Positions 7,211 to 20,908 of a stretch of DNA of 29,542 bases are shown here, in pieces. The stretch is taken from the IMG/VR virus record IMGVR_UViG_3300033067_000349, positions 1-29,542 of that record. The stretch is one strand, 5' to 3'. A program made the position numbers and the translations under genes. The stretch is from a virus (lineage: Duplodnaviria; Caudoviricetes). Position 1 is the first letter of the stretch. Every line of letters begins with the position of its first letter. A model generated the notes under the pieces. It had not been told where the DNA came from. It saw only the letters and a program-made list of their open reading frames with translations, and made no database searches.

Positions 7211-7944
7211 ATATCCAACTCTTTGCGCATAGCAAGGAAGTTGAACACGAGAATCAGTTTCATGTTTATCACTTGATCGTACTTGGTGAGGTCACCATTG
7301 CACATCGACCATATCAATTGCTCCCATCCCCATTTGTTGGATGCCTTTTGCTTCTCTGCTTCCTTGCGTTCCTCCGGGTCATCAATATCTGAAAGGTCCT
7401 CCTCGATATCCTCTGTCATCAGGTTGGAATGCTTGGTGATGAATTGGTCTCTGAACTTGATGTATTCAGTTAGGATGCCGTACAACTTGGTGATTGGTTG
7501 CTCCAGGAAGTAGTGAGTCCTTGATGATGTCTTGAAGTTGGTTGACTCCCATTCGATGACTGCATTGTCTTCCATCCTCGATGGGATGCGATACAACAGT
7601 GCGCAGATGTTCGGAAGATATTTGATATAGTCCTGTGTGAAATAGTATTCGAGGTCGATAAACTCCCCCAGTGTCAACTCATTCATTGGCTTGAGATGGA
7701 ATTTTCCAACACGATCAACATGATTCTTGGATGGTTCTGAATACAACCATTGCAAATCTTTGAACCATTCACCTACCTCATGCAATTCAGCATCATCAAA
7801 ATCTTCAGGATAGGAATCAGTGAGAACGCAGAGTACATCGATGTTGTGGTTGAACAATCCATCCTCTGCTTGGAGTTGCCTTAACTCAATGAACTGCTCA
7901 AGACTGACTTGGTTCCACCCCTTCGGTAGAATTGGCTTTTGCAT
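7207..7944 (-). CDS. Putative tail assembly chaperone-like protein B (reverse strand)
   Basis: ATG at 7944; 'LPKGWNQVSLEQFIEL' and internal 'MNELTLGEFIDLE'; C-terminal 'KWGWEQLIWSMCNGDLTKYDQVINM'; function inferred from context. Confidence 0.55.
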   Translation of the reverse strand: MQKPILPKGWNQVSLEQFIELRQLQAEDGLFNHNIDVLCVLTDSYPEDFDDAELHEVGEWFKDLQWLYSEPSKNHVDRVGKFHLKPMNELTLGEFIDLEYYFTQDYIKYLPNICALLYRIPSRMEDNAVIEWESTNFKTSSRTHYFLEQPITKLYGILTEYIKFRDQFITKHSNLMTEDIEEDLSDIDDPEERKEAEKQKASNKWGWEQLIWSMCNGDLTKYDQVINMKLILVFNFLAMRKELDI

Positions 7945-8446
7945 ACTCTGCAATCTTTTCAGTTACGAACACAATGTATGGCACACACACCTCTGCCTTG
8001 AGGTCTCGAAATATCTTTGCCTTGTGTTTGAGGTGAGCATCTGCAAAGTGTTCAGTGTTCGACAGGTCAGTTCGTTTGAACATGATGGCCATGATATCAC
8101 TGATGTAGTGGTTCGGCTTGGTGTTGACAATCTTCTCGATGAGTTTTGTTTCTTTAACTGACAAGCGCAACTCGGCAGTGTAGGTGTATCCTTCCAACTC
8201 GATGGTTCCGATTGGTTCCTGTGGGGTGTATGAATCGAGATTGAACTCTTGCACCAACTTGATGAACTCACTGAATGGGTAGTCATCCCATAGTTTCTCA
8301 TCGATGCCGAGGAACTTAAACATCTCGACATACTTTTCGATGTTGTCGAACTCTTTGTTGTTGAGGATTTGGCTGATTTTCTCGAATTGGTCGATTGTCA
8401 ATTCGTTCATTTTGTTGGGAATCTCCCTGTCAAATACACTTATCAT
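7898..8446 (-). CDS. Putative tail assembly chaperone-like protein A (reverse strand), apparent paralogue of B
   Basis: Real start taken as ATG 8446 (MISVFDREIPNKMNELTIDQF), since the listed extension to 8812 overlaps the protease gene antisense. Confidence 0.55.
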   Translation of the reverse strand: MISVFDREIPNKMNELTIDQFEKISQILNNKEFDNIEKYVEMFKFLGIDEKLWDDYPFSEFIKLVQEFNLDSYTPQEPIGTIELEGYTYTAELRLSVKETKLIEKIVNTKPNHYISDIMAIMFKRTDLSNTEHFADAHLKHKAKIFRDLKAEVCVPYIVFVTEKIAEYAKANSTEGVEPSQS

Positions 8447-8458
8447 AATTATTTTTTG

Positions 8459-12750: not shown

Positions 12751-13316
12751 TGTTGTATTTCATCACCGAAAACTACCTCAAGACCAACACACCAATCACT
12801 GCCAATGTGGATGTGACTGATGTATTCCCATATGTAGCAACTCAAGCACAACTCCGAGTGATGCCAATCCTTGGCACTACTTTTTACAATCATTTGCTGA
12901 CTGCATACAACGATCAAACGCTCACACCTGAAGAGGAGAAACTCGTCTCATTCATTCAACCTGTGATTGCATGGAGGTCAGCAGAGGATGCAGTATTTGG
13001 GTTGACATACCAACTCAAGAACAAAGGACTTCAGCAGCAGAGTGGTGACTTCTCACAACCAGTGAGTCGCTCCGAGGTTGCGTTTGGCATGGAACACTAT
13101 GCGCAGAAAGCATCGTTTTTTGAGATGCGATTGATTCGCTACCTAATTAAAAACAAATCAGAGTATCCAATCTTCACGAGCCATGAGAATCGTGACACTG
13201 ACCTTCGACCACAAGTCGAGTGCAATATGTGTCAAGGTGATTGCTTCTATGATGGCAAATGGCAGTGCGGATATCCACGAGACAATGGCTACAATAACTC
13301 AATATTAGTCATCTGA
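12750..13316 (+). CDS. Putative head-tail adaptor
   Basis: 188 aa, TAATG-coupled to portal, helical with 'AQLRVMPILGTTFYN.L'; Cys-rich C-terminal tail. Confidence 0.55.
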   Translation: MLYFITENYLKTNTPITANVDVTDVFPYVATQAQLRVMPILGTTFYNHLLTAYNDQTLTPEEEKLVSFIQPVIAWRSAEDAVFGLTYQLKNKGLQQQSGDFSQPVSRSEVAFGMEHYAQKASFFEMRLIRYLIKNKSEYPIFTSHENRDTDLRPQVECNMCQGDCFYDGKWQCGYPRDNGYNNSILVI

Positions 13317-13741
13317 TGAAACACACAATCCTCGCAATATTCGCATCCTTGTTCACAATACTTTCACCTGTGCAGCCCATGGTATTGGTTGCCATCCTCG
13401 CAATATTTATTGACACCATCTTCGGAGTTTGGCGCAGCGTCAAGCAAGGTGGTTGGAAATCATTCAAGTCAAGACGATTGAGTGACACCATTGGCAAATC
13501 ATTGCTTTATTCAGGTGGCATTGTGTTCGCTTTCTTGATTGAGAAATTCATTGCAGGTGATATCATTGCTCACTTCATTTCGGTTGAGTTAATCATGACC
13601 AAGTTTGTTGCGTTCTTTTGCGTAGTGGTTGAGGTCAAGAGCATCAATGAATCGTATGAAAGTGTGACAGGCAAGAACATCCTTGCAGCGATGCGCAGAT
13701 TTGTGACTCGTTCCAAGAGTGAACTTGACAATTGGAAGTAA
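13316..13741 (+). CDS. Holin (phage holin family 4-like)
   Basis: Several hydrophobic segments; 'IDTIFGVW..S', 'KS.RL..TI.K', 'E..SI.E' motifs; upstream of lysis enzyme. Confidence 0.85.
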   Translation: MKHTILAIFASLFTILSPVQPMVLVAILAIFIDTIFGVWRSVKQGGWKSFKSRRLSDTIGKSLLYSGGIVFAFLIEKFIAGDIIAHFISVELIMTKFVAFFCVVVEVKSINESYESVTGKNILAAMRRFVTRSKSELDNWK

Positions 13742-13983
13742 CTGTACCTCCATGCCTCTCAACGATGCACACTGGGGAGAGTTCAATGGACAGTGCAGCT
13801 GACTGATTCCATTTAGCTATGTAAGGAGGGTGATGCGCTTACATATACCACCAAGCTGAAGTCGGGTGGAATTTAAAAAGCACTCGCAGTGATGTGATTG
13901 AGTGAGCAACTCGATGAAACTGCACCCCCGATGATAATGTTGTCGGGGGATATTTACTTAATTAAGGAGAAAAACACTTAATT
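13741..13983 (+). ncRNA. Candidate structured RNA between holin and endolysin
   Basis: About 240 nt with no ORF of 60 aa or more on the + strand and at least eight complementary segment pairs; several G-U pairs favour the + strand; no known family recognised. Confidence 0.55.
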
Positions 13984-13984
13984 T

Positions 13985-14563
13985 ATGGTCAGAAACTACA
14001 CCGACAAACAACTTCTCGACAGGGTCAAATCACTTCGCAACTTCCGAAGCATTCCTTCAGACCATTGGATTCTTGGTGTACGATCAAACGAGGATACTGC
14101 CAATCGATTCGATGACAAGTTCTATCTCTTCAAAGGTGAGCAGTTCATTGCAGTCGCATCAGGAACCACCAATCCAGGTACACCGACACTCAAACAATTC
14201 GATAAGATAAACAAAGCAGGTGCAGCAGTAGTCAAAGCAGACTCATGGTATTATAATTTATGGAAGTTTGGCAAACACAATGGCAAGGTCGATGCACTGC
14301 TTCAGCTTGGCGCATCCATCACTGTCAATCGTGACACCGATAAGGATGACAAGAGCGAGGAGATTGGTCAAGTTCAATCAGGATACTTCGGCATCAACTT
14401 CCATCCTAACACATACGATATCACTGCCGACAATACAGGTGCAACCATTGGATGGTGGTCAGCAGGTTGCCAGGTAGTCAATGACATGGATAAGTATCGC
14501 ACATTTATCAGAGCAACCAAGCCACAAAAGTCAGTGACATACTGCCTCATCAACGAATTTTAA
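13985..14563 (+). CDS. Putative endolysin with L,D-transpeptidase (YkuD)-like catalytic motif
   Basis: 'GINFH-x16-SAGCQV' resembles the His...S-x-G-C motif of L,D-transpeptidases; lies between holin and spanin. Confidence 0.65.
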   Translation: MVRNYTDKQLLDRVKSLRNFRSIPSDHWILGVRSNEDTANRFDDKFYLFKGEQFIAVASGTTNPGTPTLKQFDKINKAGAAVVKADSWYYNLWKFGKHNGKVDALLQLGASITVNRDTDKDDKSEEIGQVQSGYFGINFHPNTYDITADNTGATIGWWSAGCQVVNDMDKYRTFIRATKPQKSVTYCLINEF

Positions 14564-19978: not shown

Positions 19979-20199
19979 AAAAAAATATATTATTTGGAGA
20001 TATCCAGGTAAGAGATAAGACAAAAGTTAATGTCATAAAGAATGCAGTATTTATTGAAGATGAATGGATGTATAAAGGAATGACAATAATCAAAGTATTG
20101 TCATCAAAAATAATAGGTCAAACGAATACTTCAAAAGAATATACTGAAGTGAAAGCAAGTGATGAAATAAGAAACAAAATAACAGGAGCATATGAATAA
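19975..20199 (+). CDS. Hypothetical protein in AT-rich island
   Basis: 74 aa, ATGA overlap with helicase stop. Confidence 0.65.
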   Translation: MKKNILFGDIQVRDKTKVNVIKNAVFIEDEWMYKGMTIIKVLSSKIIGQTNTSKEYTEVKASDEIRNKITGAYE

Positions 20200-20908
20200 T
20201 TTAGAATTAAACAAAATATATTGCGAAAGCAATCTTGAAACAATGGCAAGAATGCCGGACAACTTTGTTGACTTAGTTGTCACATCACCACCATATAACA
20301 CAGGTGGTAAATCATTGGAGGTAGGTAGATTTTACAAGGATTATGATGATAATTTGAAAAATGAAGAATATAAAGAATTTATTTTTAATAATGTCAAAGA
20401 ACTTATTAGAGTTACAAAACACTATGTTTGTTACAATTTTCAAATTCTATCCAATAACAAAATAATATATTTGGAATTTATGAATGAATTTAAAGACAAC
20501 ATAAAAGATATTGCCATTTGGAAAAAACACGCAGTATCTCAAATTCAAAAGGGAAAAATGGCAACAGGTTTTGAATTTATTGTAATGCTCGGTAAAGATT
20601 CCAAAATGAATTTTGAATACAACAATTTCCCTGAAAATAATTATGTTCCAAATATTCAGACTTGGCATAAAAAGGAATCAATCAAAGGTCATGGTGCAAC
20701 AATGCCTGTTGAAATGGCAAGATATTTTATTGAGTATTTTTCAAAAGAAGGAGATATTGTATATGACCCATTTATGGGAACAGGAACAACTGCTATTGCA
20801 GCTATATTACAAAAAAGAAAATATATTGGAAGTGAAATCACACAACAATATATTGATATTGCAAACAAAAGACTTGAACCACATTTATCTCAACAATCTT
20901 TATTCTAA
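20192..20908 (+). CDS. DNA amino-methyltransferase (N4-C/N6-A, beta class)
   Basis: Motif IV 'TSPPY' precedes motif I 'DPFMGTGTT'. Confidence 0.9.
   Translation: MNNLELNKIYCESNLETMARMPDNFVDLVVTSPPYNTGGKSLEVGRFYKDYDDNLKNEEYKEFIFNNVKELIRVTKHYVCYNFQILSNNKIIYLEFMNEFKDNIKDIAIWKKHAVSQIQKGKMATGFEFIVMLGKDSKMNFEYNNFPENNYVPNIQTWHKKESIKGHGATMPVEMARYFIEYFSKEGDIVYDPFMGTGTTAIAAILQKRKYIGSEITQQYIDIANKRLEPHLSQQSLF

Follow-up and report, generated by a model that had tools for sequence, protein, structure and literature searches.

Phage-borne four-hairpin RNAs with an AbiF antitoxin-like arm: a candidate dimeric decoy encoded between holin and endolysin genes

Genome context

The DNA analysed (the window) is a whole virus record of 29,542 bases, 100% complete according to CheckV, with genes for portal, capsid-like, terminase, tape-measure, primase, Erf, SSB and methyltransferase proteins. 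Its holin and endolysin-like genes are separated by a gap that carries a series of predicted hairpins (Table 1), the first of which starts 2 nt past the holin stop codon. Among cultured phages, the capsid-like protein has its sole matches in Nonlabens phages (27% identity); this similarity, together with the Pfam families present, points to a host of the phylum Bacteroidota. No tRNA or tmRNA gene was detected in the window by ARAGORN, and a repeat search of the window found no second copy of the RNA element described below.

Table 1. Genes and predicted RNA features at the holin-endolysin locus of the window
Feature	Position	Strand	Description
Holin gene	13316..13741	+	Pfam PF05105, E 7e-8
P1	13744..13784	+	abiF-RNA-like hairpin; GTAC-CTCC / GGAG-A-GTTC base, 6-7 nt 3' bulge
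abiF core of P1	13754-13768	+	15 consecutive bases identical to abiF
P2	13785..13813	+	6-bp stem, 2-nt 3' bulge, 3-4-bp inner stem, loop
TAGC linker	13814..13817	+	complementary to GCTG 13855-13858 in P4 loop
P3 (optional)	13818..13845	+	stem, conserved bulged G, freely variable apex
P4	13848..13869	+	5-bp stem, near-invariant 12-nt loop; outer pairs covary
Module E	13886..13923	+	separate two-stem hairpin, GAG(C/T)A loop
Module F	13925..13949	+	G+C-rich hairpin closing the array; flagged terminator-like
A/T-rich conserved element	13953..13983	+	before endolysin start
Endolysin-like gene	13985..14563	+	PHROG 33083 endolysin, E 4e-11

Modular composition of the gap

The + strand of the gap folds to -75.6 kcal/mol (z -3.79, with 1 of 200 shuffles as good), in keeping with a preliminary description of the gap as densely structured, and the - strand folds no better than shuffles (z -0.61). 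The excess stability is located at 13884-13952 (z -5.5); the segment 13744-13870, taken in two parts, has z scores of -0.08 and -1.0, that is, no stability above shuffles. All 21 strings quoted in the preliminary description were found where it had placed them, and every stem it listed is present, but its picture of a single multi-stem element is not borne out.

Of 134 loci that encode a related endolysin, the best 80 were taken for comparison, and 59 of these have a holin gene too. Eighteen of these 59 holin-endolysin pairs have no modules (the genes overlap in 6, abut as TAATG in 8, and are separated by short gaps in 4), and the other 41 have one to five scored modules in fixed order. Even in the closest relatives, whose endolysins share 89-97% identity, gap length ranges from 64 to 321 nt and the modules differ. 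Within the same best 80 of 134, the abiF hairpin is present in only 4 of 53 scored gaps and the whole 5' element in 1 of 53; therefore, lysis cannot depend on the element. Judged from these relatives, the gap is made up of separate hairpin modules in variable combination and is not one fold.

Module E has 31 viral matches; 11 distinct copies show 99% of cells paired and 4 pairs with double changes, and in 301 Bacteroidota genomes, no true copy was present in the 25 loci inspected of 43 matches allowing mismatches. Module F is found in all 41 module-bearing gaps versus none of the 12 scored module-free gaps (best 80 of 134), and is likely to be a leaky terminator or a protective 3' end. The slot before module F is occupied in several relatives (L006, L016, L026, L069 and others) by module H, which has a CTCG stem and an ACTGCT...GAACAC internal motif, and by module I. 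The A/T-rich element next to the endolysin gene is independent of the RNA modules, with variants in module-free gaps as well (L001, L010, L072). This element, ACTTAA...AAAACACTTA, precedes endolysin and other genes, with or without RNA modules, and in relatives an inverted repeat, TGTCC...GGACA, often comes next; the element is possibly a DNA operator. At three loci (L267, L212, L111), a holin gene and RNA array like those of the window precede an endolysin gene of an unrelated family, which suggests that endolysin genes are exchanged and that the array moves together with the holin side.

A family of four-hairpin RNAs

Positions 13744-13869 of the window constitute one member of a family of RNAs of approximately 125 nt that consist of four hairpins in the order P1-P2-TAGC-P3-P4. 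A search pattern based on the P4 hairpin found 74 viral loci, which with the window make 75; 73 were parsed to one layout, representing 59 distinct sequences, outside of which fell a chance match (L286) and a divergent true copy (L291). Lysis genes (holin) are neighbours in only 2 of the 74 loci; others lie near genes for SSB, primase, terminase or small unknown proteins (49 of 113 neighbouring ORFs were scanned). The element usually starts a few bases past a stop codon, inside an operon, and at 10 of 73 loci the gene immediately after it encodes a tRNA or tRNA-like RNA.

The predicted stems are strongly supported by comparison. In 37 aligned rows, 97.8% of cells are paired and 17 of 28 pairs have changed on both sides, a result reached by none of 500 shuffles, and when partners were slid as a control, pairing was 27-47%. 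RNAalifold recovered P2, P3 and P4 unaided. P2 has many G-U pairs (at one position, in 20 of 37 rows), an indication that the element is read as a single strand, the + strand. P3 has double changes in 6 of 9 pairs, and the pair above its bulge is G-C in 22 rows and A-U in 15; two copies lack P3 (L270, L290), and seven keep P1-P2 without P3-P4. From the base of P1 to P4, 29 columns are invariant in 38 rows, many of them in linkers, bulges and the P4 loop, some being fixed by the search pattern. The TAGC linker and GCT(A/G) of the P4 loop may form an H-type pseudoknot into which P3 is inserted; there is no covariation either way because both sides are near-invariant, and when the pattern was freed on the P4 loop side, none of the 58 true matches showed a variant there.

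The family appears to be restricted to phages in the searches made. The P4 pattern gave 15 matches in 185,579 prokaryotic genomes (GTDB), none with the upstream hairpins, and model R1 found no frame in 150 Bacteroidota genomes, a set that contained no positive-control genome. The frame was found in no cultured phage. Rfam has no family for it in the window, the gap or 40 related loci, where the credible matches were to abiF, tRNAs and one DUF3800-VIII RNA, and no Rfam ribozyme was matched in the gap (E 10) or in 20 family loci (E 5). By blastn against annotated phages and plasmids, the gap had only short matches, of which the credible ones were to the abiF core; nothing credible came from searching phages with another family member or plasmids with the J and K loops (see below). 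The literature searched, to which most subscription papers did not belong, contained no description of the four-hairpin frame, of the palindromic loop, or of AbiF decoys made from AbiF's own RNA; the RNAs named in the available text of one recent report are manA, EGFOA and a kink-turn RNA (10.64898/2026.07.01.735769).

Thus, judged by covariation, this is almost certainly a real structured RNA family, and apparently an uncatalogued one. The expectations in the preliminary description of a new structured RNA and of a processed small RNA are upheld to the extent that the stems covary, that most of the element is without an Rfam family, and that 59 distinct copies exist. Its view that no known RNA could be recognised was mistaken for 13748-13782, which match Rfam abiF weakly; the Rfam search it called for gave this single credible match, below the cut-off, and left the rest of the element unmatched.

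Predicted folds of the window copy and the possibility of a lysis switch

For the window copy, the fold that ViennaRNA prefers (-75.6 kcal/mol) is not the comparative one (-63.4 kcal/mol): in the preferred fold, P2 is open and the abiF loop is taken up in pairing. Across the 59 copies, the comparative hairpins exceed a probability of 0.5 in 73% for P1, 78% for P2 and 93% for P4, and we read the alternative predicted for the window as a quirk of one sequence. Two of the helices listed in the preliminary description are backed by relatives, namely ATGTAAG/CTTACAT (P3) and CCCCCGA/TCGGGGG (module F). The proposed closing stem (GTGCAG/CTGCAC) and the CACTC/GAGTG stem have pair probabilities of about 0, and TTAGCT/AGCTGA, whose probability when nested is about 0.04, survives only as the possible pseudoknot. 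The proposed first hairpin (TCCAT/ATGGA) is indeed the best predicted fold in the window copy (about 0.9), but it pairs fully in only 1 of 59 copies, the window itself, as does ATTCCAT/GTGGAAT, and the GTGCA on which a two-state switch was based is present in 1 of 59. The two conformations depend, then, on bases private to the window copy.

A cis-acting, two-state switch that times endolysin expression, as originally proposed, could exploit this more stable alternative fold, and module F could attenuate read-through into the endolysin gene. The evidence from relatives runs the other way, since the gap differs between close relatives and is absent from 14 of the 59 (best 80 of 134 endolysin loci), the element adjoins a holin gene so rarely, and the alternative helices are not shared; such a switch is considered extremely improbable.

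A palindromic loop in P2

The loop of P2 carries a self-complementary hexamer, CAGCTG (13796-13801), which is fully palindromic in the window (duplex -7.7 kcal/mol). Double changes are found in 9 of the 10 P2 pairs, and the central pairs of the loop are kept in 37 of 37 and 36 of 37 rows, with 20 and 12 double changes. The central tetramer is palindromic in 56 of 59 copies and in 8 of its 9 distinct words (CGCG in 24 copies, AGCT in 13, ATAT, CTAG and GTAC in 4 each, GCGC in 3, CCGG and GGCC in 2 each), a degree of palindromy reached by 1 in 200,000 permutations; the sole non-palindromic core, GACC, occurs in the remaining 3 copies.

The HIV-1 dimerisation loop is a self-complementary kissing loop that may be compared with P2. 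In the OLE and GOLLD RNAs, which likewise have a central palindrome with adjacent covarying bases, the covariation of neighbouring loop bases was read as cross-chain pairing in kissing loops (Kretsch et al., 10.1101/2024.12.08.627333). Because the middle bases of P2 are also neighbours, unable to pair within one strand, the same argument predicts that the RNA probably forms a homodimer through a P2 kissing loop. P2 shares with the OLE, GOLLD and HIV-1 loops the presence of purines 5' of the 6-nt self-complementary stretch; unlike them, it belongs to an RNA of only about 125 nt, uses eight different palindromes, and is coupled to a candidate toxin-binding hairpin. No sequence kinship to any of the three was found.

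The P1 slot and its links to AbiF

The base of P1 is constant among copies while its top is swapped. Above an invariant C-G, the next three pairs form in every one of the 59 copies and use 3-5 pair types each; the parser accepted only copies with three pairs, which accounts for part of this. In a classification of our own, the 59 tops comprise 14 of type A (as in the window), 2 of type J, 17 of type K, 9 with a short CTCTTG and 17 stubs.

P1 of the window has the exact core and the outer stem of abiF RNA, the kind to which the RCd22 and AbiFr antitoxin RNAs belong, together with its short 5' bulge, inner stem-loop and 3' bulge, but not the score: 13748-13782 match RF03085 with 26.2 bits (E 0.0086 for the gap alone), short of the 37 required for gathering, and abiF was not matched at E 10 by four related A-type copies. 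The exact 15-nt core of the window was also found 8-41 nt upstream of Abi_2 (AbiF) frames at two loci (L113, L131). TAnnTTTG is the Bacteroidota-type promoter consensus, and one of the two loci (L131) has such a promoter and an AbiF that groups (99/98) with J-loop AbiF. Of 104 metagenome loci with sufficient flanking sequence, 29 have a J or G loop directly upstream of an AbiF-like gene, and 25 of 64 ORFs downstream of such loops match PF07751. Abi_2 was matched in 22 of 221 Bacteroidota genomes. Upstream of 16 full-length Bacteroidota AbiF genes, the RNA is J-type in 10, A-like in 3 and another variant in 1, with none seen in 2.

These loops recur around the four-hairpin frame. The J loop occupies the P1 slot in two copies (L276, L317) and closely precedes the element in three (L258, L309, L320), while the G loop occupies another slot in 10 of 53 scored holin-endolysin gaps (best 80 of 134). 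An A or J loop is present within 300 nt at 20 of 73 family loci versus 0 of 209 control stretches, and all 3 matches in a search for J loops across 37 whole frame-bearing records were at the frame locus. At the other 53 of 73 loci, no A or J loop was recognisable within 300 nt; since so many of the tops are K, CTCTTG or stubs, the frame is evidently kept without a known antitoxin. The K loop had 6 matches in 251 Bacteroidota genomes versus 10 for a control, and no native partner. The A-type core was matched 17 times in 401 Bacteroidota genomes versus 18 for a control, never before an AbiF gene, and thus at chance level; the loop of the window is therefore rare in the inferred host phylum.

On a tree of AbiF proteins with 29 rows, loop types are clustered (4 changes versus 10.6 when shuffled), which would give a reason to swap P1 tops, although kin share labels, so that the clustering does not amount to proof of specificity. 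The G-linked AbiF proteins form one well-supported clade. The second and third AbiF-linked RNA classes, J with a 6-nt bulge and G with none, dominate in Bacteroidota (L398-L514, L532-L552). A J-type loop was also seen at the anticodon-arm position of a tRNA-like frame (L396 on the - strand, L494), and this tRNA-like frame, with middle arms that are long and variable, comes after the four-hairpin element at five loci (L251, L274, L276, L317, L321).

Orphan abiF motifs

The window genome has no Abi_2 (PF07751) gene, nor does any of 46 related records, 23 of which are at least 90% complete. Native AbiF RNAs have a promoter and a U-run; no match to TAnnTTTG was found on the + strand of the window between 8012 and 17540. 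With no toxin, promoter or U-run, the window element is not an AbiF system. It resembles native Bacteroidota AbiF RNAs in the GTAC...GT(N)C base of P1, and differs from them in that P1 runs straight into three further hairpins, lacks the native U-run and has a top that is swapped; nor does it have the promoter-RNA-terminator-toxin layout of the AbiF type III system.

Orphan motifs of this kind are widespread in viruses. The 15-mer occurs in an estimated 1100 or so viral stretches; in the 120 that were fetched, a stem of at least 6 bp is present in 82 of 105 distinct flanks versus 19 with shuffled partners, AbiF lies just downstream in 2 of 116 stretches, and Abi_2 is encoded in 1 of 49 whole viral records. 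Several phage loci, including L091, L092, L099 and L155, have tandem runs of several variant abiF-like hairpins, one of them with a DUF3800-VIII RNA (80 bits) about 310 nt further on, and other large phages (L085, L119, L109, L118 and others) have orphan abiF hairpins within or at the edge of tRNA clusters.

A lysis module is also where a complete cassette is known: in the Clostridioides difficile prophage phi027, RCd22 RNA and abiF lie right after the holin gene (10.1101/2025.04.15.648962). This keeps alive the reading of the abiF motif in the window as the relic of an RNA-plus-abiF cassette lost from the lysis module, with an ordinary terminator after it, and the terminator-like character of module F is consistent with it. 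The fusion of P1 to P2-P4 at many unrelated loci argues against such an origin, as do the spread of the frame, the loss of the native U-run, the absence of Abi_2 from the related records, and the 15-nt core, which remains exact while its stems vary in step. Already strained, the relic reading is regarded as very unlikely.

A candidate decoy for AbiF

RNA of the abiF motif binds AbiF directly and neutralises it in trans (10.1101/2025.04.15.648962), one RNA is bound, through a bulge, per monomer of the AbiF dimer (PMC12737573), and a hairpin of phage sk1 that is unlike the native RNA also inhibits AbiF (PMC13064643). At the level of sequence, the modular layout, the stems, the palindrome, the swapping of P1, the AbiF linkage of two loops and the absence of the toxin can be accommodated together if the element is a dimerising decoy RNA for a host AbiF RNase; this is the best reading of the data, with about even chances of being correct, and that the window copy in particular inhibits an AbiF is slightly favoured. 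The array would be transcribed with the late operon and released by host RNases, with hairpin F as its 3' end. Two copies would kiss through P2, so that each of the two RNA sites of the AbiF dimer would be offered a P1 hairpin, and the paired hairpins would occupy host AbiF once the host's own antitoxin runs out, P1 taking the antitoxin's place and thereby keeping the infected cell from shutting down. Swapped P1 tops would follow different host toxin variants; stub copies may have lost the top or may inhibit in another way, and module E may be a further decoy with another partner. Native Bacteroidota systems have one motif per RNA, and therefore a dimer is not required for antitoxin action as such. 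One 181-nt contig from a freshwater RNA library, which may contain DNA, covers 13760-13940. The AbiF toxin is reported to block DNA replication (PMC13064643), against which a position in the late operon may be too late; other copies of the family lie near SSB and primase genes.

The four-hairpin frame could instead have a job of its own, such as cutting the operon transcript, by self-cleavage or by guiding an RNase, and so freeing neighbouring tRNAs, or binding of a phage protein, with the abiF loop a passenger on P1 in some lineages. The invariant columns outside the stems would suit such a function, as would the many loci that keep the frame without a known antitoxin loop, the usual start just past a stop codon inside an operon, and the tRNA or tRNA-like genes that follow some copies. 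The ribozyme searches of the gap and of family loci were negative, however, seven copies dispense with P3-P4, and the conserved P1 base resembles that of native AbiF RNAs, which ties the whole frame to the AbiF system; an independent function of the frame is rated unlikely.

The array might also be a sponge for several RNA-binding defence proteins of the host, with P1, P2-P4 and E each addressed to another and with the P2 palindrome and P4 pseudoknot copying undescribed antitoxins. Modules E, G, H and I are each present or absent independently of one another, their order being constant (best 80 of 134 endolysin loci), gut phage loci pair abiF motifs with DUF3800-VIII RNA, and type III antitoxins are described as H-type pseudoknots (PMC12283969). 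Bacterial copies that such modules would imitate were not seen, either for P2-P4 in the GTDB genomes by pattern and in the R1 set, or for module E among the inspected loci, and no ToxN exceeded the cut-off in 301 Bacteroidota genomes; this explanation is judged distinctly improbable. A pseudoknot antitoxin of the ToxI/TenpI/CptI kind was also considered for the element and rejected: it is present in single copy, it has no Rfam match, and no such toxin is encoded among the window proteins scanned.

Relation to known RNA mimics

The decoy reading has precedents. The pseudo-ToxI of phage PhiTE is a phage RNA that mimics a type III antitoxin and was proposed to suppress abortive infection (PMC3475682); like the window element, it is antitoxin-like RNA in a phage that lacks the toxin. 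It is, however, a tandem repeat of one ToxI-like unit, directed at ToxN and selected in the laboratory, unlike the window array, which has dissimilar units, a conserved frame with a self-complementary loop, and a HEPN RNase (AbiF) as candidate target. In the literature searched, this laboratory-selected case was the type III antitoxin RNA mimic found. The lytic cyanophage S-CREM1 has an orphan abiF sRNA among other ncRNAs, a lone hairpin for which the available text of the report proposes no decoy role and in which no four-hairpin frame is described (PMC9964418). Antitoxin mimicry by phages is known, and what would be new is the four-hairpin frame that carries it.

Most described phage counter-defences are proteins. 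If the decoy reading is right, the orphan AbiF antitoxin hairpins of roughly a thousand viral contigs would be natural anti-defence genes, of a kind missed by protein-centred annotation. More tentatively still, Bacteroidota phages may have evolved a natural RNA display platform, in which a frame of about 125 nt, a kissing-loop dimer and an exchangeable antitoxin hairpin make a two-armed inhibitor for the dimeric AbiF, as one of several carriers, tRNA-like ones included, in a widespread and mostly unnoticed RNA counter-defence. The element is a small natural RNA in which comparison of copies clearly points to self-dimerisation and in which one slot accepts unrelated inserts, and its swapped loops would provide a map of toxin-RNA specificity in a family that has been proposed as the ancestor of Cas13. 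The structured family holds even if the decoy role fails.

Other genes of the window

A gene for an N6/N4 DNA methyltransferase (20192-20908), likely another counter-defence gene, lies in the kilobase of lowest GC content in the genome (30%). One gene of the morphogenesis block (7820-8450, - strand) is opposite in direction to its neighbours, and its start resembles, by eye, that of the gene located 3' of the RNA element in many relatives.
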